Shown here piece after piece: positions 1-9,089 of a DNA stretch of 9,089 nt. A program made the position numbers and the translations under genes. The notes beneath the pieces were generated by a model, which saw only the letters and a list, made by a program, of their open reading frames with translations, made no database searches and had not been told where the DNA came from. Numbering within the stretch: the stretch's first letter is position 1; the number at the start of each line of letters is the position of its first letter. The stretch comes from a virus (Duplodnaviria > Heunggongvirae > Uroviricota > Caudoviricetes). The DNA lies in IMG/VR virus record IMGVR_UViG_2667527789_000012. One strand, 5' to 3'.

Positions 1-1202
<1,202 letters not shown>

Positions 1203-1215
1203 CCTGAACCAGGAA

Positions 1216-2724
1216 TTATTCTTCGGACTGGTCGTCGGTGTGCTGCGGCTCCTGTCGTTTCGTTGCGGCACTACTGCCTCCTTTATCACTGGCCGGATCG
1301 GTATCAAATACCAGATCCAGATTGCGGTTTTCATCAATTTCGGCCTTGCGCCGACGTTTGACATCATCCGGATTACGACCACCAGCACGTACCCAGTCTG
1401 ATTCTGTCGCCGCTCCACCACGAATCTGGATTTTCCAGGCCTCAGCCTCCTTAACAGGGTCAATCCACGGCATCACTGGTCCGGAATACACCGCGGTATA
1501 CAGTGAAGAACGGTCAAGATCGCGGGGTAGCCTGATAACACCGGATGCCACAGCCTGTTTCAGCCATGCACGATACATCGGGCGGGTGACGGCACCAATA
1601 AACCAGTCCTGCAGGATCAGGTAGCCATCAGTGGATTCAACCAGCTCCTGACGCTGGGCGCTGTAAGTGCCGTTATAGTTGCGCGCTGTACTGGAAAAAC
1701 TCAGACGACTGCCCGCCGCCACGGCACGCAACTGACCATTACGAAAAGTTTCAAGGTTAGGATTGGGGCGATCCGACTTCACCATTCCGATTTCTTCGCC
1801 GGGTTTCAGATCGTCGTAAATAATGCCCGGCTGAATGGTAAGCTCACGTTCATTCTCCTTTCTGCCATTACCATCCGGTTCATAGCTCTGCCCGTCGCCT
1901 TTCCGGATGTACATCCCCAGAGCAGCGGCGATCCTTGCTGCAGTCAGCTCAGAATCTTCATATTCTTTCAGGGCACTGAGGCGGATCAGCACACCGGACA
2001 ACAAAGACGTCCCGCGCATCTGGTGCAGACGGCGAACAAATTTAAGATGCAGCATTCGCTCTGCATCCACTTCTTTGGTTTCCATCTGCCGTCCGGATAC
2101 GGGACGGCTTTTATACACCAGATATTTTTCGGGACGCCCCCAGTCATCAACAAACACGCCCTGATTCAGCCTGTTGCTCTCATCACTGGTCATGGGAATA
2201 AAGTCCGGCTCGAGCGCCTCCAGCCAGAAATGAACACCGGCAGAAGGCGCCAGGCTGTTTATGCGCCCGGAAACCATCTGGGCAAACACCTCACCATCGC
2301 GCAGCCAGGTACGAAGCATCAGACGTTCCAGCATCGGACGGGTAAACTGCCCGGTGACTTCCGGGCTGACAGACCATTCACTCCATCGGGTGCGAATCTC
2401 CGCAGCCAGGTCACGGGCAATGGCCCCATTGCGTAATACCGGATGTGGCTCGACAATAATCCCGTTTTTCCCCACCACCCGTTCTTCCAGCTTGTCAAAT
2501 ACACCAATAACCAGATCGTGGTTGTTATCAAGGTAACGGGCCTGCTCACGTAACGACACGGCCCCGTACTGGCTTAACTGGTCGGCAGTTCGGTTCTCCC
2601 GTCGGGCTTTGTGTGTCCGCGTCGTTTTTACGGCCTCATAAGCCTGGATCACCGCACGGGAACGCAGCCTTGCCGCTTTCCATCCTGGTGAAAAAACGCC
2701 AATCACATCATCAAGAATTGCCAT
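1216..2724 (-). CDS. Phage portal protein (lambda gpB-type position and size)
   Basis: 502 codons from the ATG at 2724 (MAILDDVIG...), preceded by GAGG at 5-nt spacing. The ATG overlaps the upstream gene's TGA (TGATG). It sits between the terminase/gpW genes and the protease, as in lambda Nu1-A-W-B-C. Family assignment is by synteny and size, not by a recognised motif. Confidence 0.75.
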   Translation of the reverse strand: MAILDDVIGVFSPGWKAARLRSRAVIQAYEAVKTTRTHKARRENRTADQLSQYGAVSLREQARYLDNNHDLVIGVFDKLEERVVGKNGIIVEPHPVLRNGAIARDLAAEIRTRWSEWSVSPEVTGQFTRPMLERLMLRTWLRDGEVFAQMVSGRINSLAPSAGVHFWLEALEPDFIPMTSDESNRLNQGVFVDDWGRPEKYLVYKSRPVSGRQMETKEVDAERMLHLKFVRRLHQMRGTSLLSGVLIRLSALKEYEDSELTAARIAAALGMYIRKGDGQSYEPDGNGRKENERELTIQPGIIYDDLKPGEEIGMVKSDRPNPNLETFRNGQLRAVAAGSRLSFSSTARNYNGTYSAQRQELVESTDGYLILQDWFIGAVTRPMYRAWLKQAVASGVIRLPRDLDRSSLYTAVYSGPVMPWIDPVKEAEAWKIQIRGGAATESDWVRAGGRNPDDVKRRRKAEIDENRNLDLVFDTDPASDKGGSSAATKRQEPQHTDDQSEE

Positions 2725-2936
2725 CAGAACCTCGCCAGCCGGTACCCGGGATGCCCCCGTCGTCGTGTAATCAGAGCCGCAAGGCGGCGCTCCCACTCCT
2801 GCCGTCCCTGCCGGATCTCAGATAAGTTTTCCATGGTCATCTGCTGACCATTAAAGGTGACGGATTTTCCGTCCAGCACCGCCATTTCAGCTTCCGTATA
2901 ACGCTGAATCATGGCTTCGATATCATTCTGGTTCAT
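2724..2936 (-). CDS. gpW-like head-tail joining (head completion) protein
   Basis: 70 aa, in the position of lambda W between terminase large subunit and portal. The C-terminal ...RRRGHPGY resembles the lambda gpW C-terminus (...RRRGPAGFYV, from memory). Start taken as the ATG at 2936 (GGAGG at 6-nt spacing), overlapping the terminase TGA as ATGA. Confidence 0.65.
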   Translation of the reverse strand: MNQNDIEAMIQRYTEAEMAVLDGKSVTFNGQQMTMENLSEIRQGRQEWERRLAALITRRRGHPGYRLARF

Positions 2937-5032
2937 AACCATCCTCCGGAAGTCAGCCAGGGGTTAACATCGTCAGTTACTGTTTTCTTCCGTTTTTGTT
3001 TTTTAACAGGCGTGGATACCGGTTCCGGTGAGGATGACGGTTCGGTACTGTCCTGGACACACTCCAGCCAGGTCTCCCGGCTCGCCCACTCCGGTGCATC
3101 CGGCCAGCGGATCTTTTCGTATCCATGCAGAATGACCAGAGCCTCGGCATACACCATCAGGTCAAAAGCTTCGTTGGCACCGCGACCCGGCTTACTCCAT
3201 TTCCCGTCACTGCTCCGCTCTTCATACGTCAGTTCGTCGTAAAACCAGCTCCCCAGCCAGTCAGGGAAATGCACATAGCCTGGACCTGGCGAGTCACGCC
3301 ATAACGCGTTATTCACCCGGTCTTTCAGGGCATCCGTCTGAAGAAGCCAGAGCGGCACATCACCTGCGGCCTGCGCCCGGCGGCCCGTTCGTCCGGTGTT
3401 ATCAGGGAATGTACGGCTGATCAGTTTTGCGCGCCGGATGCTGTCACCCTTAAACAGGTAAATACGTTTACCAAGGCCATCACGACGGCAACGACGCCAG
3501 AATTTATAGGCATTATCAGTGACCCCGTCTTCACCGCCGGAGTCCACCGCCATTGCCATCAGTCGCATTTGTTGAGAAGGATCGGAGGCCAGCGGCCAGC
3601 TTTTATGAAAAACATCCGTCAGCAGGACATCCCAGTCTTCCGGATAGCTGGCCGGATCAATTCGCTGGCTCTCCCCGTCGCAGTCACTGCGCAATGACTG
3701 CGTGATGTTGTAACGATCAATAATCCAGCGTTCGCCACGACTGCCATAGCCCGTTACCTGAACCACAAAACGGCGATGACGTCCCGCCTGCACATCCACT
3801 GTCGCCACAAGGAAATTAACGCCATCCGGCACACTGCGGGAAGGAACTGGCTCTGCCCGCTGCTCAAGCAGTTCACTTTTTCGTTGCTCCATGCTGGCAC
3901 GAGGAAGATAAGGCAATCCCCAGTCGGTGTTGATAACCGCCCTGAGTGTTTCTTCGCTTCCTGTCGCTTCATACTCCTGTTCTGCAGTCAGTAATTTGTA
4001 AACCAGTTGCGCCCAGGTCTGATACGCAGCAGCTGGCCCTTCCATCCAGAAACTGGCGATACGGGAGCGGCGCGGTTCACCGGAAACGTTGCCGTTACGA
4101 TCAATGACCTGACCTTCACGCAACCAGACTCCTGCACTATTGAGCTCACGCTTTTTCTCCGCAGTGATAATGCCGCTGCAGTGCGGGCAAAGTAGATACG
4201 CCGCCTCACTGGCTTTAAAGGGATCCGGTTCATTACGGTAGCCGGTCATGGCATCCATGGCTGGCTGAAAATATTCACCGCAGTGCGGACATGACCAGTA
4301 CCAGCGGCGGCGGTCACCACGATTGTAAAGGGAAAGAATACCAGTCGTCGGTGGCGCTTCATGAGGCGACTTACGTCGCCATTTGCTGTCGCAGATGTCA
4401 CGTCCCGGCGAGCTCTCCACCAGAGTCATCCCGGCGGACATAAATGTGGTGGTACGTTTTGAGGCCAGGGAGAAACCATCACCCTCGCTGTCGATATTCT
4501 CCGGAAAACGGTCGTAATCGGTTAAGGCGACAAACCGGTAATCCGACGACGACATAATGTTGACCGAGGGCCAACCAATTTTAAGGAACGAGCCATCCCT
4601 GAACGTCTTATCATGGACATTATTGTCGTTACGACGTGGACTCATTCTTTTCTTTACCGCCGCACTGCTTCTGAACGTTCTGTCGAGGCGCTTTTTAGAA
4701 TGCTCGCGGGCCTTATCTTCGGTCATCTGCACAACGAGCATGTCCGAAGGATCGCAAACGATGGTATAGACAATCCATCCATCGATCAGACCAATGGTCT
4801 TCCCTGTTCGCGCAGGACCAACAAAAATCACCGCATCGTATTCACGCGATGCCAGGCAGTTCATGGGCTCAATGATGTAGGGTGTCAGTTCAGGATCCCA
4901 TGGCACCGAGTTACCAGCCCCCTTGGGAACACGCATGAATTTTTTAACAGCCTCCGAAATCGGCATGCGACGTGGTGGGGAAAATCCTGCCGATATGTCC
5001 CTTCCCAAATTTCGGGCTGATGAAAAACCCAT
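2933..5032 (-). CDS. Terminase large subunit (lambda gpA family)
   Basis: 699 aa with a Walker A P-loop (VGPARTGKT) and paired Cys motifs (CPHCGEYF ... CPHCSG) like the CPHCGEE motif of lambda gpA. An HFPDW... segment near the C-terminus resembles lambda gpA HFPNNPD. Strong AGGAGG RBS 6 nt upstream of the ATG at 5032, immediately downstream of the small terminase gene. Confidence 0.9.
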   Translation of the reverse strand: MGFSSARNLGRDISAGFSPPRRMPISEAVKKFMRVPKGAGNSVPWDPELTPYIIEPMNCLASREYDAVIFVGPARTGKTIGLIDGWIVYTIVCDPSDMLVVQMTEDKAREHSKKRLDRTFRSSAAVKKRMSPRRNDNNVHDKTFRDGSFLKIGWPSVNIMSSSDYRFVALTDYDRFPENIDSEGDGFSLASKRTTTFMSAGMTLVESSPGRDICDSKWRRKSPHEAPPTTGILSLYNRGDRRRWYWSCPHCGEYFQPAMDAMTGYRNEPDPFKASEAAYLLCPHCSGIITAEKKRELNSAGVWLREGQVIDRNGNVSGEPRRSRIASFWMEGPAAAYQTWAQLVYKLLTAEQEYEATGSEETLRAVINTDWGLPYLPRASMEQRKSELLEQRAEPVPSRSVPDGVNFLVATVDVQAGRHRRFVVQVTGYGSRGERWIIDRYNITQSLRSDCDGESQRIDPASYPEDWDVLLTDVFHKSWPLASDPSQQMRLMAMAVDSGGEDGVTDNAYKFWRRCRRDGLGKRIYLFKGDSIRRAKLISRTFPDNTGRTGRRAQAAGDVPLWLLQTDALKDRVNNALWRDSPGPGYVHFPDWLGSWFYDELTYEERSSDGKWSKPGRGANEAFDLMVYAEALVILHGYEKIRWPDAPEWASRETWLECVQDSTEPSSSPEPVSTPVKKQKRKKTVTDDVNPWLTSGGWL

Positions 5033-5040
5033 TATTCCTC

Positions 5041-5568
5041 CTAGAGACTCTCTCCTTCCTCATCAGGAATTAATTCAGCAGCACAAGCCTCGTAGGATTT
5101 TTCCTGAAGAGTGTATCGCAGGTCATCAATGGCCTGCTGTACAACGCCGACGGCCTGAGGAGTCAGGGCGCAATCGCGTTCAAGAACATCCGGAATTGTC
5201 TCCAGAACCTGGACGACAGCCTTTCTCATGGACGAATAGACGATGACTACTTCATCAACGGGGATGAGTTTTCGCTGCTCCTTTTCCAGCTTGATCCTTT
5301 CATTTTCAGATTGGTACCAGTCCTTTCTCTCTTTCGGCTCCATACGGGATGGATCATGAACAGAGTCTGCTGCCTCATGCTTCACACTAAACAGGGCTGG
5401 CCCGACATGCTGCAGGGCGTAAACGGGGTTCCCCCTGATAGTCGCAGCCACAGGAGTGTTGGCCGCGAGGAGCCGTTTTTTTACTGTGTCCCGGTGAAGC
5501 CCAAAGGCCTCAGCGATTTTAAAAACACTCCAGTAATAAGCATCACCGATCCCGCTCACATTTGACAT
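5041..5568 (-). CDS. Terminase small subunit (lambda Nu1-like, N-terminal HTH)
   Basis: Lies directly upstream of the large terminase and about 190 bp downstream of the cos-like block. It has a predicted helix-turn-helix (FKIAEAFGLHRDTVKKRL), a Nu1-like charged middle region (KDWYQSENERIKLEKEQRK) and an acidic C-terminus. Start chosen at the ATG at 5568 (MSNVSG...; GGAG at 6-nt spacing); in-frame ATGs at 5598 and 5580 are alternatives. Confidence 0.75.
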   Translation of the reverse strand: MSNVSGIGDAYYWSVFKIAEAFGLHRDTVKKRLLAANTPVAATIRGNPVYALQHVGPALFSVKHEAADSVHDPSRMEPKERKDWYQSENERIKLEKEQRKLIPVDEVVIVYSSMRKAVVQVLETIPDVLERDCALTPQAVGVVQQAIDDLRYTLQEKSYEACAAELIPDEEGESL

Positions 5569-5688
5569 AAGCAACTCCATCTGGCAGGTGAAAATCATGT
5601 TTATTTATATATTTCAATTAATTGCAAACTGGTCTAATGACAGGGAGAAAAAAATATTGTACAGGTGAAAAGAGAAATAACTTTTAAT

Positions 5689-5744: not shown

Positions 5745-5780
5745 TTTCCGCGACGCTCCCGCCCCGTGGCAGGGGCCCCC
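5745..5780 (-). other. cos site core (cosN-like cohesive-end region of a lambda-type packaging site)
   Basis: In gene sense the sequence reads CACGGGGCGGGAGCGTCGCGGAAAAAGGC, closely resembling the lambda left end GGGCGGCGACCTCGCGGGTTTTCGC (recalled). Distance to the Nu1-like start is about 190 bp, as in lambda, with an AT-rich cosB-like stretch in between. Exact nick positions cannot be determined from sequence. Confidence 0.6.
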
Positions 5781-5820: not shown

Positions 5821-5952
5821 TGAGCATCTGATACAGCGCTTTACATAATGGCATAGGAATAATTCAGAAGGACATCACAGCATGCCCACACAAATTAGTG
5901 TGAGTGTCCTGTTTCTTCCTACGCACAGGACTGACGAGCATGAGGGGAAAAT

Positions 5953-6120
5953 ATGCGAACCATAAATGCCTCATCTTCAGCAATGCAACCGGCATCCGAA
6001 CAGGACGATATTGTAAATTCACCTAATTACGAGGACATTGCAGTAGTTGAATTGCAGCTCTGTATTAGCCTGACAGTGACAGAATGCGATATTGACTCTG
6101 TCACAGGTGAAATAGTTTGA
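5953..6120 (+). CDS. Hypothetical small acidic protein (55 aa); not in the ORF track
   Basis: ATG at 5953 preceded by GAGGGG at 5-nt spacing, running to TGA at 6118-6120. Translation MRTINASSSAMQPASEQDDIVNSPNYEDIAVVELQLCISLTVTECDIDSVTGEIV has 10 Asp/Glu against 1 Arg. Contains rare codons (CGA, ATA) and no promoter was identified, so coding status is uncertain. Confidence 0.3.
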   Translation: MRTINASSSAMQPASEQDDIVNSPNYEDIAVVELQLCISLTVTECDIDSVTGEIV

Positions 6121-6140
6121 ATGATTAGCAGTTATGGTGC

Positions 6141-6347
6141 TCAGTCAACCACCAGGGAATAATCCTTCGAATTCTTATCGTGCTTCACCAACGCTGCCTC
6201 AATTGCCCTGAATGCTTCCAGAGACACCTGATGTTCTATACATGCAATTACAACATCCGGGTAACTCATAGAAATGGTGCTATTAAGCATATTTTTTACA
6301 CGAATCAGATCCAACGAGAGTTCATCAGCAGATTGTTCTTTATTCAT
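6141..6347 (-). CDS. Hypothetical protein (68 aa), cos-proximal accessory gene
   Basis: ORF with GGAG at 7-nt spacing before the ATG at 6347, convergent with the 55-aa ORF (stops 20 bp apart). No family recognised; possibly the counterpart of a small Qin-prophage gene next to the Nu1 homolog. Confidence 0.5.
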
Positions 6348-6647
6348 TTTGTCGCTCCATGCGTTTGCTCGTCATCTAGCGGTTGAAATATTACTTCAAA
6401 TCTTACTGCATAAAAGAGGAAAAGTATGAAAGTTTGAGTACATCGACCTTACATACATCTGTCGGTTGCATATCCCTCCTGGATGCCAGCAAGGCTCAAT
6501 TTTGTTACGCAATCAACACTATTCATCAAAAACAGGCTTAATATTTGACATAAATCATCAACAAAACACAAAGAGGTCAGACCAGATTGAAACAATAAAC
6601 ACGATAATGCTAACTACGCGCCATCGTATCACATGGAAGGTTTACCA

Positions 6648-7058
6648 ATGGCTCAGGCTGCCATTTTTAAAGAAATATTCGATCAAGTGCGTAAAGATTT
6701 AAACTGTGAATTATTTTATTCTGAGCTAAAACGTCACAATGTCTCACTTTATATTTACTATTTAGCCACAGATAATATTCACATTGTGTTAGAAAACGAC
6801 AACATAGTGTTAGTAAAAGGACTCAAAAAGGTTGTAAATGTTAAATTCTCCAGAAACAAACATCTTATAGAGACCTCCTATAATAAGTTGAAATCAAAAG
6901 AAATCACATTTCAACAATACAGGGAAAATCTTGCTAAAGCAGGAGTTTTCCGATGGGTTACAAATATCCAGGAACACCAAAGATATTACTATGCCTTTGA
7001 TAACTCATTACTATTTACTGAAAGCATCCAGAAAACTACACAGATCTTACCACGCTAA
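6648..7058 (+). CDS. DUF1398-family prophage protein (YdfO/YbcV-like)
   Basis: 136 aa from the ATG at 6648 (GGAAGG about 6 nt upstream; the track ORF begins 5 codons earlier). AT-rich with an internally repeated architecture. It occupies the position of ydfO between the Nu1 homolog and gnsB in Qin. Family assignment is from memory and synteny. Confidence 0.55.
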
Positions 7059-7067
7059 ACCATAACG

Positions 7068-7094
7068 TCCGGCTTCTCTCACTCCTGAGCCGGA
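7068..7094 (+). terminator. Hairpin downstream of the DUF1398 gene (possible weak terminator)
   Basis: TCCGGCT ... AGCCGGA forms a 7-bp stem with a 13-nt loop, 10 nt after the stop at 7056-7058. The following sequence is only modestly U-rich. Confidence 0.3.
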
Positions 7095-7150
7095 CTGCAT
7101 TGGTTTAATAAAAACCATCAACAATTGTGATTTAGATATTCGGAACCATT

Positions 7151-7180
7151 CAAATATAACAAAACCCCGTAAAAACGAGG
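7151..7180 (-). terminator. Rho-independent terminator downstream of the gnsB-like gene
   Basis: Minus-strand sense CCTCGT-TTTT-ACGGGG (5 Watson-Crick pairs plus one G-U) followed by TTTTGTTATATTTG, about 30 nt after the gnsB-like stop. Confidence 0.4.
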
Positions 7181-7209
7181 TTTATGGATAAATTTTATTA
7201 TTGAATACA

Positions 7210-7383
7210 TCAGATTAAATTAATCTTGACATCATAGCTTTCAAGACCCGTCATTTTTTCCCGTGCGGTAAACTGAATACTGGTAACTTCTTTCCCGGTC
7301 TTTTTCTTAAGTTCAATAATTTTTTTTGTTATATATTCAGAAATATCTGCTTCTGCTTTTGTTTTTAAGTTTTCAATATTCAT
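7210..7383 (-). CDS. gnsB: GnsA/GnsB-family protein (57 aa)
   Basis: Not in the ORF track (below length cut-off). Translation MNIENLKTKAEADISEYITKKIIELKKKTGKEVTSIQFTAREKMTGLESYDVKINLI, same length as and close to recalled E. coli GnsA/GnsB (MNIEELKKQAE...KNTGKEV...RFTAREKMTGLESYDVKIKIM). RBS AGAGGAA lies 5 nt before the ATG at 7383. Confidence 0.8.
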   Translation of the reverse strand: MNIENLKTKAEADISEYITKKIIELKKKTGKEVTSIQFTAREKMTGLESYDVKINLI

Positions 7384-7431
7384 CATTTCCTCTTTTAGTC
7401 TGTTATGACTTTCCAGTTACACAGTAAGTCG

Positions 7432-7437
7432 ATTATA
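7432..7437 (-). promoter_or_regulatory. Candidate -10 hexamer (TATAAT) for the gnsB-like gene
   Basis: A perfect TATAAT on the minus strand about 50 nt upstream of the gnsB-like start; the -35 is weak (TTATCT at 17-nt spacing). Confidence 0.3.
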
Positions 7438-7554
7438 TGGTGCAAACGTGTAAAAGATAAGATGAAACATCGCAATAATCAACATACGATAGTCTAAATT
7501 TTACACAAACAGACAAAGAGAATTTTCCTGAATTATCAATACAATAGCATCAAA

Positions 7555-7785
7555 TCAACTCAAGAGCCTTATTGCTGCTTCCAGAATTTCTTCTGAAGTA
7601 ACATGTCGATCCGCGGCTACATAAATGACTTTATGATCTCCGGTCAGAGATGGAAACCCTGCGGCCATTACAGTAAGGTGTGTTTTTTCGCCATTTGGAT
7701 ATTCACGCATGATGGTGTTAACTCCAGTCATCGCTGGCACTACCACTGCTGGTTCAGAGTTAAAAAAAACTATGATTTTTTTCAT
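7555..7785 (-). CDS. Hypothetical small protein (76 aa), YnfN/YmcE-like by position
   Basis: ORF starting at the ATG at 7785 (MKKIIVFFNSEPAVVV...); the track ORF's extra 14 codons begin at a TTG. It sits between cspI and gnsB like ynfN in Qin, and its length equals that of YmcE, the GnsA neighbour. No sequence-level recognition; weak SD. Confidence 0.5.
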   Translation of the reverse strand: MKKIIVFFNSEPAVVVPAMTGVNTIMREYPNGEKTHLTVMAAGFPSLTGDHKVIYVAADRHVTSEEILEAAIRLLS

Positions 7786-7825
7786 GATGTTACCGTAGTA
7801 TGTGAGTATCCATCGAATAGATACC

Positions 7826-7868
7826 AAGCAAAAAAGCTCCCGAAGGAGCCTTCATTTTCACTTTTTTA
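7826..7868 (-). terminator. Rho-independent terminator ending the cspI transcript (hairpin is U-flanked on both strands)
   Basis: Minus-strand sense GCTCC-TTCG-GGAGC followed by TTTTTT. On the plus strand the same stem is followed by CTTCATTTTCACTTTTTT. Confidence 0.5.
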
Positions 7869-8056
7869 AATCCAACGACAGACGGCTGGCATTTAAGTAT
7901 TGTGAAATATTATCAAATGTAATCATCATTGATTTACAAAAGATACATTTTGCCCCGAAAGGATTCATGTCAGAAACATCAAAAGATGATGTTCTATACT
8001 GGGAACCATGACAACACGGGCATCTAAAGTGAATATGGTTTGTAATATTGTCTACC

Positions 8057-8269
8057 TCAAAGCGCCACTACATGAACAGCGGCAGGACCTTTAGGTCCGT
8101 TCTCAATACCAAATTCAACTTCCTGATTCTCAGTTAATGTTTTGAAATCGTTGCTCTGAATTGCTGAGAAATGGACAAACACATCTTTGCTGCCATCTTT
8201 CGGCGTGATGAAACCAAAACCTTTTTCAGGGTTAAACCATTTCACTAAACCAGTCATTTTGTTAGACAT
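8057..8269 (-). CDS. cspI: Cold-shock protein, CspA family (70 aa)
   Basis: [38 protein letters not shown]... carries the RNP1/RNP2 cold-shock-domain motifs (KGFGFI, VFVHF). AAAGGTAATAATT-ATG mirrors the cspA translation initiation region. The symbol cspI is assigned from Qin-like synteny (gnsB-ynfN-cspI-Rz) and recalled sequence. Confidence 0.85.
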
Positions 8270-8449
8270 AATTATTACCTTTTGAAGAAATTAGCCCTTG
8301 GGCAGAATGGTCCGAAAAAAAATATCAGAGAGAAAAACCAACAAGGAAATCTCAAGAGGTACAAATAATAAAATTATAACAATGACTGCTTCAGATAAAT
8401 TTGTAACAAACCAGAACACCATTAACGCATGATTAACCACCCATAGCAA
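8270..8449 (-). promoter_or_regulatory. cspI promoter and long 5' leader
   Basis: Minus-strand -35 TTGCTA (8449-8444), 17-nt spacer, -10 GTTAAT (8426-8421), similar to the cspA promoter, with AT-rich DNA upstream. Predicted start near 8414 gives a leader of about 145 nt, as expected for cold-inducible csp genes. Confidence 0.5.
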
Positions 8450-8631
8450 GGATTACTTTTGTAAAGAAAAACACAGCAATGAAAGAATAGCTTTATTTAT
8501 TAATAAAACGTGTCATTCTGATTAAGACCTTTTATCTTACCCTTAAGATTTCAGGAATTTTGGCTCATGGAAGAGTCCTTTTTATTTAAATTTTACATTC
8601 CGCGATGTAAATGTTCCGATTTAATATTACC

Positions 8632-9089
<458 letters not shown>

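Follow-up and report, generated by a model that had tools for sequence, protein, structure and literature searches.

The window, that is the whole 9,089-nt stretch of viral DNA analysed here, carries a block of small genes on both strands between Rz/Rz1 and cos (positions 5830-8631; Table 1). An earlier note on this DNA had called the block AT-rich, and base composition and the gene map agree: its G+C content is 36.3%, compared with 53.3% in the packaging genes (1-5598) and 48.3% in Rz. The codon comparison that the note had proposed gave the same picture, third-position G+C being 0.28-0.42 in the island genes and 0.54-0.56 in terminase and portal. Of the claim of at least five small genes in mixed orientation, the orientation stands, and the RefSeq count is seven: cspI, ynfQ, ynfR, ynfN, gnsB, ydfO (DUF1398), and a 68-aa YbcW-family gene, with ynfQ and ynfR being annotated small genes that had been overlooked. 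The DUF1398 gene and the 68-aa ORF had been recognized as such; the latter's product gave no match in Pfam, NCBIfam or PDB. At the left boundary, the right and left ends of the deposited phage Tritos genome fall on window positions 5765 and 5764, respectively, which locates cosN; a length of 12 nt was assumed for it, following lambda (GGGCGGCGACCT).

Table 1. Features of the accessory block and its boundaries, in window coordinates.
Feature	Position	Strand	Basis or remark
cosN, GGGCGGGAGCGT	5753..5764	-	left boundary of the accessory region; position approximate
ybcW-family gene, 68 aa, co-oriented with late genes	6141..6347	-	phrog_657 E=5e-47; YbcW annotation in Tritos; hypothetical in RefSeq
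divergent ybcW/ydfO intergenic region	6348..6647		gene orientation; autonomous ybcW expression (published RNA-seq)
ydfO/ybcV-type DUF1398 gene, 136 aa, opposite to late genes	6648..7058	+	PF07166 148 bits; PDB 2HH8 YdfO E=8e-67; phrog_413
intrinsic-terminator-like hairpin after gnsB	7162..7183	-	9-bp stem and T-rich tail
gnsB, 57 aa, GnsA/GnsB family	7210..7383	-	PF08178 120 bits
predicted gnsB promoter	7432..7460	-	-10 TATAAT 7432-7437, weak -35 TTATCT 7455-7460, spacer 17 nt; read from sequence
ynfN, full-length 76-aa form, orphan small protein	7555..7785	-	beta5-alpha fold
ynfR, 21-aa ORF spanning the terminator hairpin	7790..7855	-	RefSeq annotation
intrinsic terminator directly 3' of ynfQ	7830..7852	-	AAGGCUCC-UUCG-GGAGCUUUUUU; folds at -13 kcal/mol
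ynfQ, 62 aa, YmcF-like, zinc-ribbon-type (CxxC...CxxC)	7858..8046	-	RefSeq; PF23641 110 bits; ATT start
cspI, 70 aa, CspA-family RNA chaperone	8057..8269	-	CSD PF00313 108 bits
cspI 5' untranslated leader, ~145 nt, cspA-type RNA thermometer	8270..8415	-	Rfam RF01766
cspI promoter	8421..8449	-	-35 TTGCTA 8444-8449, spacer 17 nt, TGc-extended -10 GTTAAT 8421-8426; read from sequence
rzpQ (Rz), cut by window end	8632..9089	-	DUF2514 78 bits; RefSeq annotation of D3, K-12; right boundary of the region
rzoQ (Rz1), embedded in rzpQ	8682-8936	-	right boundary of the region

The block is already known, annotated, and largely described: it is the moron block of Qin/Tritos lambda-like prophages. A 3.1-kb segment is found at 100% DNA identity in many E. 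coli chromosomes, and in strain D3 this match lies within a complete prophage adjoining rspB/ynfA, the Qin integration site in K-12. What lies here is the E. coli Qin locus within a prophage that has not degraded, in line with the earlier view of a lambdoid moron site mirroring Qin. K-12 Qin (rzpQ/rzoQ-cspI-ynfQ-ynfR-ynfN-gnsB-ydfO) shares site and gene order, and its cspI-gnsB segment is nearly base-for-base identical. However, K-12 Qin is defective, whereas the prophage here is complete from int/xis to the tail fibre genes; its left side carries ynfO, a lambda-type cos and nohA instead of ybcW, an own cos and terminase; its YdfO is another allele (only 78% protein identity, though the cassette is shared); and its ynfN has lost one nucleotide from a T run, while the 76-aa frame is intact here. 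Escherichia phage Tritos (AIEC LF82 prophage 3; OV696610; PMC9928086), which is functional and plaque-forming, is 99.7% identical along 95% of the query sequence, the match running to the cos end of its genome, and carries the same seven genes with essentially no difference within the island. cspI and a neighbouring gene have been published as Tritos morons (PMC9928086). The label 'YnfN' given to the 174-nt Tritos gene in Table 1 of that study was rejected here, as its coordinates are those of gnsB.

Of 5426 complete E. coli genomes, 2096 (39%) carry the cspI-gnsB unit, which is also present in Citrobacter prophages, there in the order Rz-csp-ynfQ-ynfN-gns. Between Escherichia and Citrobacter copies of cspI, ynfQ, ynfN, and gnsB, dN/dS ranges from 0.02 to 0.15 (cspI 0.02-0.03, gnsB 0.05-0.07, ynfQ 0.13-0.15) at saturated dS (>1), and the cspI-gnsB genes are under strong purifying selection. 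This contradicts the idea that the small ORFs have no function and are AT-rich DNA in decay or simply carried along, which we regard as extremely improbable. Base composition would fit such decay, as would the variable T run of ynfN (8T in 46 loci, 7T in 10, and 9T in one), the ynfR ORF, which has no start codon in the Citrobacter copies (the hairpin is conserved), and the H-NS-type silencing reported for ybcV/ybcW-like genes (PMC7827196); against it also stand the spread of the cassette among E. coli genomes, its high and regulated expression, and the detection of tagged YnfR protein.

The CspI translation is 100% identical to CspI of K-12 and Tritos (tblastn), and the note's cspI-like RNA chaperone with a long leader was borne out by the CSD and by a match of 112.8 bits to the cspA thermoregulator RF01766 (gathering score 78; 8030-8415). 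Like the cspA mRNA thermosensor, the long leader and coding start fit the covariance model end to end, with its 3' terminator part unmatched because ynfQ comes next instead; in contrast, the leaders of cspA, cspB, and cspG differ in sequence from that of cspI. In support of the cspI promoter, the motif ATGCGTTAAT is invariant across the cspG, cspB, and cspI alignment. The model starts at 8415, just past the predicted cspI promoter, which shares the TGn-extended, non-canonical -10 of cspA-type promoters and is preceded by an AT-rich upstream element. Given that a generic scan returned fewer promoter sites than its shuffles, with no enrichment, and passed over this promoter with its non-canonical GTTAAT, promoters were assigned by sequence reading, homology, and published RNA-seq; the proposal that several genes carry their own signals is supported on that basis by predicted promoters, and for terminators by the terminator-like hairpins after ynfQ and gnsB. 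The cspI 5'UTR changes structure between 37 and 10 °C in experiments, and cold induction of cspI acts via this thermometer (PMC13271884). The note had named both cspI and ynfN as cold-inducible, which is right for cspI; for ynfN, as for gnsB, the literature searched gave no confirmation. Double and triple csp deletions including cspI grow more poorly at 15 °C, whereas a single cspI deletion has a marginal cold phenotype (PMC12562117), and cells lacking cspI are outcompeted in long-term stationary phase (PMC7406224).

The cspI stop codon lies inside the ynfQ Shine-Dalgarno sequence (UGAGG), which suggests that the two genes are translationally coupled, with YnfQ made at low stoichiometry. YnfQ is 66% identical to YmcF, and an ATT or ATC start is found in 42 of 43 csp-coupled homologues; its AF2 model has a pLDDT of 75, and all zinc-ribbon matches were non-significant. 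RefSeq lists it as 'cold shock small protein'. Among 43 csp-linked loci from several genera, 31 have a terminator within ~10 nt of the ymcF/ynfQ stop (one at +22), with stems of differing sequence. YnfR was detected as a strongly cold-induced YnfR-SPA fusion (PMC6001520), and in the DNA alignment its ORF lines up with the N-terminal part of YmcE. ynfN had been introduced as YnfN/YmcE-like, a label that has to be withdrawn: sequence comparison detects no similarity between YnfN and YmcE. The chromosomal paralogue cspH-cspG-ymcF-ymcE-gnsA likewise combines a csp gene, an ATT-started YmcF-like gene 10 nt past its stop, a terminator, and gns. It differs in that ymcE (76 aa, overlapping gnsA) replaces ynfR, ynfN, and the 171-nt spacer between ynfN and gnsB, in having no flanking phage genes, and in a cspG promoter and leader that resemble cspB rather than cspI.

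GnsB is 67% identical to GnsA and matches the GnsA structures 4XO1 and 4XO2, as expected from its assignment to the GnsA/B family. That this family affects unsaturated fatty acid content is correct for overexpression, under which GnsA and GnsB increase unsaturated fatty acids and restore growth of mutants sensitive to cold (PMC10607373; bioRxiv 10.1101/2024.03.27.586906); gnsA and gnsB plasmids rescue cold-sensitive relA fadR mutants. Both Pfam and RefSeq name GnsB as a toxin: Pfam titles PF08178 'GnsA/GnsB toxin' and PF15939 'YmcE antitoxin', and ymcE-gnsA, which overlap by 11 nt, are catalogued as a type II toxin-antitoxin pair resting on Wei et al. 2015. If GnsB were the toxin of such an addiction module, with YnfN or YnfR as antitoxin, it would stabilise the prophage. 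We consider this highly unlikely: a YmcE homologue is absent here, YnfN is dissimilar and YnfR no more than a 21-aa vestige of the N-terminal part of YmcE, the 171-nt spacer separates ynfN from gnsB, a healthy lysogen contains 5 to 64 times as much gnsB RNA as ynfN RNA, plasmids overexpressing gnsB restore growth instead of killing, and PADLOC gave no match.

Expression was taken from published RNA-seq of LF82, the lysogen of the near-identical Tritos prophage, with genes assigned by coordinates. In LB, fpkm values are 955 for cspI, 274 for gnsB, 51 for ynfN, 14 for terS, and 8 for Rz; in DMEM, log2 fpkm reaches 12.2 for gnsB, with 9.0 for cspI and 6.1 for ynfN. ybcW rises from log2 fpkm 5 in LB to 9-10 in DMEM and macrophages (~30-fold), terminase stays near 3, and ydfO expression is low. 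ynfN follows cspI at ~5% of its RNA, the two co-vary during long-term stationary phase, and AZT co-induces cspI (6.5-fold), ynfQ (5.9-fold), and ynfN (5.8-fold) with similar SspA dependence. Autonomous expression of the block is thus seen in a lysogen of a 99.7%-identical phage, and the data show three or more autonomous units, cspI(-ynfQ), gnsB, and ybcW, with ~5% read-through into ynfN, although the low ynfN RNA could also reflect a weak promoter of its own. That gnsB expression does not follow cspI and ynfN lends indirect support to the predicted gnsB promoter.

These data also bear on whether the cassette mainly serves lytic growth, aiding lysis or the expression of late genes when it is cold. 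As it follows S-R-Rz on the late strand, it would then be made from the Q-antiterminated late transcript, with Csp acting as RNA chaperone and antiterminator and Gns altering the membrane. cspI, ynfQ, ynfR, ynfN, gnsB, and ybcW indeed all follow the late operon direction from Rz to cos, the same prophage has another pair of csp genes, cspB and cspF, between Q and the holin gene, and lambdoid prophages of two genera have conserved the cassette. Yet cassette RNA in lysogens is 30- to 100-fold above that of the adjacent late genes and depends on own signals, the cassette is intact in the defective K-12 Qin, and lambda and many plaque-forming relatives lack it, leaving a mainly lytic role decidedly improbable.

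The remaining genes belong to the generic lambda right end. Positions 5995-7077 are 89.4% identical to lambda 47023-48090 (~1.07 kb), ydfO and ybcW corresponding to lambdap78 and lambdap79, and the DUF1398 and 68-aa genes have the same place and orientation in lambda (Rz/Rz1-bor-lambdap78-lambdap79-cos) and DLP12 (borD-ybcV-ybcW). Lambda differs in carrying bor, a serum-resistance lipoprotein gene on the opposite strand, where the five-gene, late-strand cspI-gnsB cassette sits here. cspI-ynfQ-ynfR-ynfN-gnsB is kept in 80 of 80 IMG/VR loci (Rz upstream in 79), whereas ydfO and ybcW vary, ydfO being missing from 26 of the 80; in Citrobacter L018, terS is next after gns, and ydfO and ybcW were not matched there. 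ydfO and the 68-aa ORF had been counted as part of a cold cassette, which the lambda match and their independent variation contradict: the cold-related unit is cspI to gnsB only, at the position of lambda bor. Gene orientation and RNA-seq suggest that 6348-6647 presumably holds the ybcW and ydfO promoters.

The earlier note had read the whole island (cspI, ynfN, gnsB, ydfO, and the 68-aa ORF) as one joint cold-adaptation cassette. A cold connection is apparent in the cspI thermometer, the cold-induced YnfR, the RefSeq name of YnfQ, the redundant help of CspI at 15 °C, the lipid and rescue effects of GnsA/GnsB, and the csp-ymcF/ynfQ...gns order that recurs in cspG-ymcF-ymcE-gnsA and Citrobacter prophages. 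However, ydfO and ybcW occur in lambda without csp or gns and are missing from many cassette-bearing loci, gnsB and ybcW are regulated apart from cspI, and Gns is restricted to Escherichia and Citrobacter, while csp-ymcF is spread far wider. In addition, all of these show strong expression or induction at 37 °C, whether in stationary phase, in DMEM or macrophages, under AZT, or in long-term stationary phase, so the block is not cold-specific, and a loss-of-function cold phenotype of gnsB, ynfN, or ynfQ was not found in the literature searched. A joint cold function is therefore only partly supported, cold induction being documented for cspI and YnfR, and we think it rather unlikely for the island as a whole.

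We favour, as the probable explanation, an accessory (moron) region, composed of two independently assorting modules with stress and fitness products for the lysogen, in an E. coli lambdoid prophage of the Qin/Tritos type; the expression data come from near-identical prophages (LF82/Tritos, K-12 Qin). Module A (~7160-8450), the late-strand cspI-gnsB cassette, would be transcribed in lysogens independently of the late promoter, and given its strand Q-antiterminated late transcription should cross it too, so that it may also have some role in lytic growth. Its own CspA-type promoter would drive cspI, whose leader thermometer may expose the ribosome-binding site at low temperature; ynfQ would be translated from AUU, 10 nt past the cspI stop, and the strong terminator after it would let a few percent of transcripts continue into ynfR and ynfN. 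gnsB would have its own predicted sigma-70 promoter and terminator. In module B (~5995-7080), ydfO/ybcV lies on the opposite strand, and ybcW appears to have its own regulated promoter. The products of the block would benefit the lysogen, in general stress resistance and fitness, and not the virion: CspI is a redundant RNA chaperone in cold growth and long-term stationary-phase survival, as shown in K-12, and abundant GnsB could, judging from overexpression, shift membrane lipids towards unsaturated fatty acids.

The AT-rich block at window 5830-8631 is, as we consider likely, a known two-module moron block that comprises at least three autonomous transcription units and benefits the lysogen under several stresses, including cold. 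The window, whose source DNA is E. coli, carries every phage late gene on its minus strand, and in the phage's own direction Rz/Rz1 is followed by the block, cos, terS, the large terminase, a gpW-like gene, the portal gene and a prohead protease/capsid fusion. G+C amounts to 36.3% in the block versus 53.3% in window 1-5598; windowed values are 0.50-0.59 in the packaging genes and drop to 0.31-0.40 across ~6000-8600, and third-position G+C is 0.28-0.42 in block genes versus 0.54-0.56 in the terminase and portal genes. Given that total and third-position G+C drop together, the AT-rich stretch that the earlier note had placed between Rz/Rz1 and cos is real, and its base composition is deviant, as is typical of a moron. 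Its location is also that of a moron, that is, a module junction outside the essential modules, bounded by the end of Rz at 8632 and by cosN, and lambda holds bor at the equivalent junction. The deposited right and left ends of Tritos, a plaque-forming Escherichia phage (prophage 3 of AIEC LF82; OV696610) that is 99.7% identical to the window, align at 5765 and 5764, respectively, and therefore position the cohesive end, which reads GGGCGGGAGCGT here and GGGCGGCGACCT in lambda.

Positions of the block genes, their predicted signals and the flanking phage features in the window
Feature	Position	Strand	Remark
small terminase	5041-5568		DUF1441, phrog_141
cosN	~5753-5764	(-)	Tritos deposited ends aligned
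68-aa hypothetical, YbcW family	6141-6347	(-)	RefSeq; named YbcW in Tritos annotation
DUF1398 gene, ydfO type	6648-7058	(+)	RefSeq
terminator after gnsB	7162-7183	(-)	hairpin
gnsB	7210-7383	(-)	RefSeq
gnsB predicted promoter, -10	7432-7437	(-)	perfect TATAAT, weak -35; read from sequence
ynfN	7555-7785	(-)	RefSeq; 76 aa
ynfR	7790-7855	(-)	RefSeq; 21 aa
intrinsic terminator directly after ynfQ	7830-7852	(-)	AAGGCUCC-UUCG-GGAGCUUUUUU, -13 kcal/mol
ynfQ	7858-8046	(-)	RefSeq 'cold shock small protein YmcF'
cspI	8057-8269	(-)	RefSeq
cspI promoter	8421-8449	(-)	TTGCTA, 17-nt spacer, TGc-extended GTTAAT; read from sequence
rzpQ (Rz)	8632 to past window end	(-)	
rzoQ (Rz1)	8682-8936	(-)	

The small terminase of the window is of the DUF1441 type and K-12 nohA of the lambda Nu1 type. 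At 1-1271 (-) and 1216-2796 (-), the head genes are of the kind in which a ClpP-like prohead protease and the major capsid protein are fused, and they overlap the end of the portal gene. Rfam isrC, a Salmonella Hfq-binding sRNA, matched window 1-59 (-) with 59.7 bits over model positions 1-59 only, the match being cut by the window end; the full context in strain D3 (L001 13600-15800) gave no isrC match at the gathering score, and we take the hit for a fragmentary match, within the protease/capsid fusion gene, whose score truncation has inflated.

RefSeq annotates seven genes in the block. The count of at least five small genes made previously was right for cspI, ynfN, gnsB, the DUF1398 gene and the 68-aa ORF, which are confirmed by profiles or RefSeq, while ynfQ and ynfR had been overlooked. 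Every product has been assigned a PHROG family, and profile matches were obtained to CSD (108 bits), GnsAB (120), DUF1398 (148) and the YmcF-like PF23641 (110). CspI is a single cold-shock domain of ~70 aa (PF00313, residues 5-69) with both RNP1 (KGFGFI) and RNP2 (VFVHF) in its translation, which matches K-12 and Tritos CspI at 100% (tblastn). The DUF1398 gene, correctly called in the earlier note, matches PF07166 over 119/119 positions and the solved structure of YdfO (2HH8, E=8e-67); likewise, the 57-aa GnsB matches its family profile (PF08178) and the solved structures of GnsA (PDB 4XO1/4XO2, E ~1e-20), in agreement with the proposed GnsA/B-family gene. An anti-phage defence role is without support from PADLOC, which yielded nothing for the block proteins beyond a generic CSD model (53.8 bits) and one marginal match (E=2e-4).

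The 3.1-kb segment 5600-8700 is present at 100% identity in many E. coli chromosomes, with partial matches in 3413 of 5426 complete genomes and coverage of at least 80% in 440. The 1.2-kb cspI-ynfQ-ynfR-ynfN-gnsB cassette alone reaches at least 80% coverage in 2096 of the 5426 genomes (39%), mostly as a single copy. In strain D3, the block lies within a complete lambdoid prophage (int, xis, dicB, cI/cro-like, hokD, Q, cspB/cspF, lysis genes, block, head and tail genes) inserted beside rspB/rspA/ynfA, which is where K-12 harbours its cryptic prophage Qin. The cassette in Qin is the same at almost every base, and the proposed resemblance to Qin is thereby borne out. The same D3 prophage carries, between the antiterminator Q gene and the holin gene (L001 24809-26059), a second cold-shock pair, cspB and cspF, together with ynfU, a gene for a zinc-binding small protein; the Q-to-holin interval is the other classic lambdoid moron site.

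The cassette and its neighbours ydfO and ybcW do not form one cold set, as had been proposed for the whole island. Window 5995-7077 (ybcW, intergenic region, ydfO) is 89.4% identical to lambda 47023-48090, where lambdap78 and lambdap79 lie between bor and cos, both oriented as in the window, which places the DUF1398 gene as well as the 68-aa ORF in the generic lambdoid right end. Lambda has bor where the window has cspI-gnsB. All 80 IMG/VR loci recovered with GnsB hold cspI-ynfQ-ynfR-ynfN-gnsB, with Rz upstream in 79; ydfO is missing in 26 of them and ybcW in others. Citrobacter prophages are arranged Rz-csp-ynfQ-ynfN-gns, and in one of these (L018) the terminase gene follows, with no match to ydfO or ybcW. 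In K-12 Qin, YdfO is only 78% identical to that of the window, and ybcW is replaced by ynfO, a lambda-type cos and nohA. Thus, cspI-gnsB and ydfO/ybcW are two modules that assort independently. A record deposited as Campylobacter phage CJLB-4 (MW057783.1, 48,361 bp) also matches the lambda-like sub-block at 89.4%, with the same coverage as the lambda records and at nearly the same coordinates, and might hold the DNA of lambda, not of a Campylobacter phage.

Transcript levels further divide the block. We read the RNA-seq data of LF82, the Tritos lysogen (PMC9928086, S1 Table), by coordinates, as approximate log2 fpkm. In the Tritos sheet of this study (Table 1/S1 Table) the product labels stand one row away from the coordinates they belong to: the moron reported as 'YnfN, 27-fold' (LF82_0907, 174 nt) is gnsB (window 7210-7383), and the true ynfN (156 nt) is expressed at a level about five times lower.

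Approximate expression (log2 fpkm) of block genes in the Tritos lysogen LF82
Gene	LB overnight	DMEM 1 h	DMEM 6 h	Macrophage 1 h	Macrophage 6 h
cspI	9.7	9.3	9.0	12.6	11.3
ynfN	5.5	6.0	6.1	8.1	7.0
gnsB	8.0	9.9	12.2	11.2	10.0
ydfO	3.1	2.8	4.1	4.8	4.6
ybcW	5.0	6.8	9.0	9.9	9.7

Rz and terminase remain at ~3-4 log2 fpkm in all conditions, and in LB the values are 955 fpkm for cspI, 274 for gnsB, 51 for ynfN and 8 for Rz. Expression in this lysogen is hence uncoupled from the late promoter, and the block has a predicted cspA-type promoter and leader as well as two terminator hairpins, so that the promoter and terminator signals claimed for it are supported. A generic sigma-70 scan of the block (6 sites versus 11.3 expected) missed the cspA-type promoter and is uninformative here. 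At ~5% of cspI in LB, ynfN tracks cspI, which fits leak-through at the terminator after ynfQ; the independent expression of gnsB fits its TATAAT element and the terminator behind it, and ybcW has its own regulated promoter, predicted from the LF82 data. Co-induction by AZT in K-12 (cspI 6.5-fold, ynfQ 5.9-fold, ynfN 5.8-fold) shows a similar SspA dependence for these genes, and cspI and ynfN co-vary through growth phases (PMC7406224). The late-strand position of the cassette might indicate a role in the lytic cycle, but plaque-forming relatives do without it, and we find this explanation quite improbable. Dispensability of the block for lytic growth would fit the comparison of genomes, in which cspI-gnsB is absent from lambda, HK629/630 and other plaque formers, and ydfO from 26 of 80 loci. 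That the small ORFs are functionless DNA is contradicted by dN/dS between the E. coli cassette and Citrobacter prophage copies (cspI 0.02-0.03; ynfQ, read from ATT, 0.13-0.15; ynfN, 76 codons, 0.11; gnsB 0.05-0.07; synonymous divergence is saturated, with dS above 1), and we give this idea almost no credence.

The names given to Gns in Pfam and RefSeq imply a toxin, and GnsA-YmcE is said to be a type II toxin-antitoxin module, the toxicity claim reportedly going back to Wei et al. in 2015. For GnsB, however, this role is very unlikely. No adjacent or overlapping, co-transcribed YmcE antitoxin is present in the window, which has no YmcE homologue (PF15939); YnfN cannot be aligned to YmcE, ynfN and gnsB are separated by 171 nt, and gnsB RNA lies far above ynfN RNA in the Tritos lysogen. 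In addition, overexpression of Gns from gnsA or gnsB plasmids rescues growth rather than arresting it: both relieve the low-temperature growth defect of relA fadR cells, and gnsA restores 16:1 and 18:1 fatty acids (bioRxiv 10.1101/2024.03.27.586906). Similarly, gnsA overexpression suppresses lapC190 (PMC10607373, citing Sugai 2001 and 2004).

Cold regulation is documented for cspI. Window 8030-8415(-) matches the Rfam cspA thermoregulator RF01766 end to end (112.8 bits; gathering score 78), and in-cell and in-vitro probing showed that the cspI leader switches between two forms, with the ribosome binding site and start occluded at 37 °C and open at 10 °C (PMC13271884). Together, the Rfam match and the published 5' UTR experiment argue for predicted cold induction through a long 5' UTR, as in the CspA family, and the call of a cold-inducible, cspI-like RNA chaperone with a long leader stands. 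The ATGCGTTAAT motif is invariant across cspG, cspB and cspI.

Directly downstream, ynfQ encodes a 62-aa protein (HFRCPCCHGSQYR...GAKCIFCK; PF23641, 109.9 bits, 62/62 positions) that is absent from ORF lists because its start codon is ATT; a mechanical ORF begins only at Met27. The junction reads ...GCG CTT TGA GGTAGACAAT ATT ACA AAC CAT..., and at 8044-8059 (-) the cspI stop is located inside the ynfQ Shine-Dalgarno sequence (UGAGG), with AUU 10 nt past the stop. This arrangement points to probable translational coupling of ynfQ to cspI. We surveyed one genome per species, yielding 143 YmcF/YnfQ relatives, and examined 80 loci from ~20 enterobacterial genera (L005-L084). Among 43 csp-coupled loci, the csp stop falls within the Shine-Dalgarno sequence and the start is ATT in 39 and ATC in 3, the sole ATG being that of Citrobacter sedlakii; among 37 uncoupled loci, ATG occupies the homologous codon in 23 and the second codon in 5 more (4 Atlantibacter, 1 Enterobacter bugandensis), although these loci are phylogenetically non-independent and the comparison per genus is ~10 versus 6. 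Three contigs in this set, binned as Veillonella parvula, Mucilaginibacter and Chryseobacterium (L006, L053 and L070), bear enterobacterial sequence and are probably mis-binned or contaminant; L006 encodes the same proteins as this prophage block, and L053 the same as the E. coli cspG locus. The AF2 model of YnfQ, of moderate confidence (pLDDT 75), has a zinc-ribbon-like knuckle pair followed by a helix; Foldseek returned only non-significant zinc ribbons (TFIIE-alpha, ribosomal zinc-ribbon proteins; all E>1), from which we assign no function, and weak sequence matches to Rieske and UvrA proteins (E 0.04-1) reflect Cys/His composition.

An intrinsic terminator occurs at most ~10 nt past ymcF/ynfQ in 31 of the 43 csp-coupled loci (one at +22), with differing stem sequences, and separates ynfQ from ynfN in 15 of 24 loci. 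The 21-aa ynfR, like the YmcE N-terminus, is read across this hairpin (7830-7855 (-); L003 3875-3900), which is why the two align. Citrobacter copies keep the hairpin and have a ynfR ORF without a start codon; therefore, the conserved feature of ynfR is the RNA structure. Tagged YnfR protein has been found in K-12, and YnfR-SPA is strongly elevated on cold shock (PMC6001520). The T run in ynfN codons 6-9 (7760-7770 (-)) has 8 T in the window, giving an intact 76-aa YnfN, and comprises 8 T in 49, 7 T in 11 and 9 T in one of the related loci; K-12 has 7 T, so the annotated 51-aa K-12 protein is a frameshift-truncated allele. According to an older EcoGene annotation citing Polissi et al. 2003, ynfN is reportedly cold-inducible. 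The label 'YnfN/YmcE-like' is wrong, since BLASTP gave no alignment between the two at E<=100, and YnfN has no Pfam match while PF15939 is matched by YmcE alone; the same results rule out YnfN as a YmcE relative or antitoxin. YnfN is confidently modelled by AF2 (pLDDT 89) as five predicted strands and a C-terminal helix; significant structural neighbours were absent, and 1.84 billion proteins contain just 46 cluster representatives.

The K-12 chromosome carries a paralogous locus, cspH-cspG-ymcF-ymcE-gnsA, whose DNA aligns to the cassette through csp, ymcF/ynfQ and the terminator hairpin, and again over gns (YmcF/YnfQ 66% and GnsA/GnsB 67% identical). Compared with cspF-cspB (L002) and window 7150-8560, cspG (L003 3177-4241) looks mosaic. 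Its promoter and upstream region, leader and first ~70 coding nt are 70-97% identical to cspB versus 25-53% to the cspI upstream region, and its 3' coding half and everything downstream follow cspI-ynfQ...gnsB; informative sites are 10 B to 5 I before alignment column 404 and 15 B to 30 I thereafter. The mosaic fits a prophage-relic origin, and these alignments suggest that the locus may derive from a Qin-like cspF-cspB...lysis...cspI-ynfQ...gnsB array in which recombination between the two csp genes deleted the lysis cassette.

It is conceivable, if somewhat doubtful, that the csp-ymcF/ynfQ pair, and not the island, forms the unit whose function is conserved, namely a Csp chaperone and a zinc-ribbon small protein on one mRNA, with AUU initiation and a gated downstream gene. 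YnfQ/YmcF would start on a near-cognate AUU/AUC 10 nt past a csp stop embedded in the Shine-Dalgarno sequence, and leak-through at the terminator would feed a third gene that varies between loci, namely ynfN or ymcE-gnsA. Near-cognate starts accompany coupling to csp (42/43; uncoupled loci mostly use ATG), which suggests termination-reinitiation; this might fix a low YnfQ:Csp ratio and may respond to IF3 and, by way of IF3, to cold. On this view, YnfQ could be devoted to assisting or modulating what Csp does to RNA, the ribosome or RNA polymerase. The unit would have its mobile copy in the prophage cassette, and cspH-cspG-ymcF-ymcE-gnsA a prophage fossil from which recombination between cspB-like and cspI-like genes removed the lysis genes.

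Physiological data connect parts of the block to cold. CspI contributes, alongside CspA and CspE, to 16S rRNA synthesis and to growth at 15 °C; single deletions have marginal effects, and double or triple deletions are clearly defective (PMC12562117). A single integrated cold cassette would fit cspI, ynfQ, ynfR and perhaps gnsB, and of the cold-adaptation proposal the cspI thermometer, the redundant role of CspI at 15 °C, the cold induction of YnfR and the rescue by gns hold up. What weakens it are the modularity and independent regulation of the block, as well as inductions at 37 °C: those in DMEM, in macrophages, by AZT and through growth phases all occurred at this temperature. At 37 °C, cells without cspI lose the competition in long-term stationary phase (PMC7406224). 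The accessible literature yielded neither loss-of-function phenotypes for gnsB, ynfQ, ynfN, ydfO or ybcW, nor cold induction of gnsB or ynfN, nor interactions among block products. We therefore regard one integrated cold cassette as unlikely, and favour the two-module moron block; the observation is confirmed, its interpretation is partly supported, and the block was already known.

Little of this is new, given that all genes are annotated in RefSeq, the block is that of Qin, and its autonomous expression in the functional phage Tritos has been published. Its value is that of a correctly resolved example of a very common cassette, separated from generic lambda right-end genes. The observations on the ynfQ start codon and terminator fall outside the earlier proposal; an AUU/AUC start tied to csp coupling and a conserved terminator gating ynfN offer openings for simple experiments on the coupling between small proteins and stress regulators. 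Judging from its gene content, the cassette would provide lysogens with a further RNA chaperone of the cold-shock type, a zinc-ribbon small protein coupled to Csp and a small protein that modulates lipids, and it is present in 39% of complete E. coli genomes.
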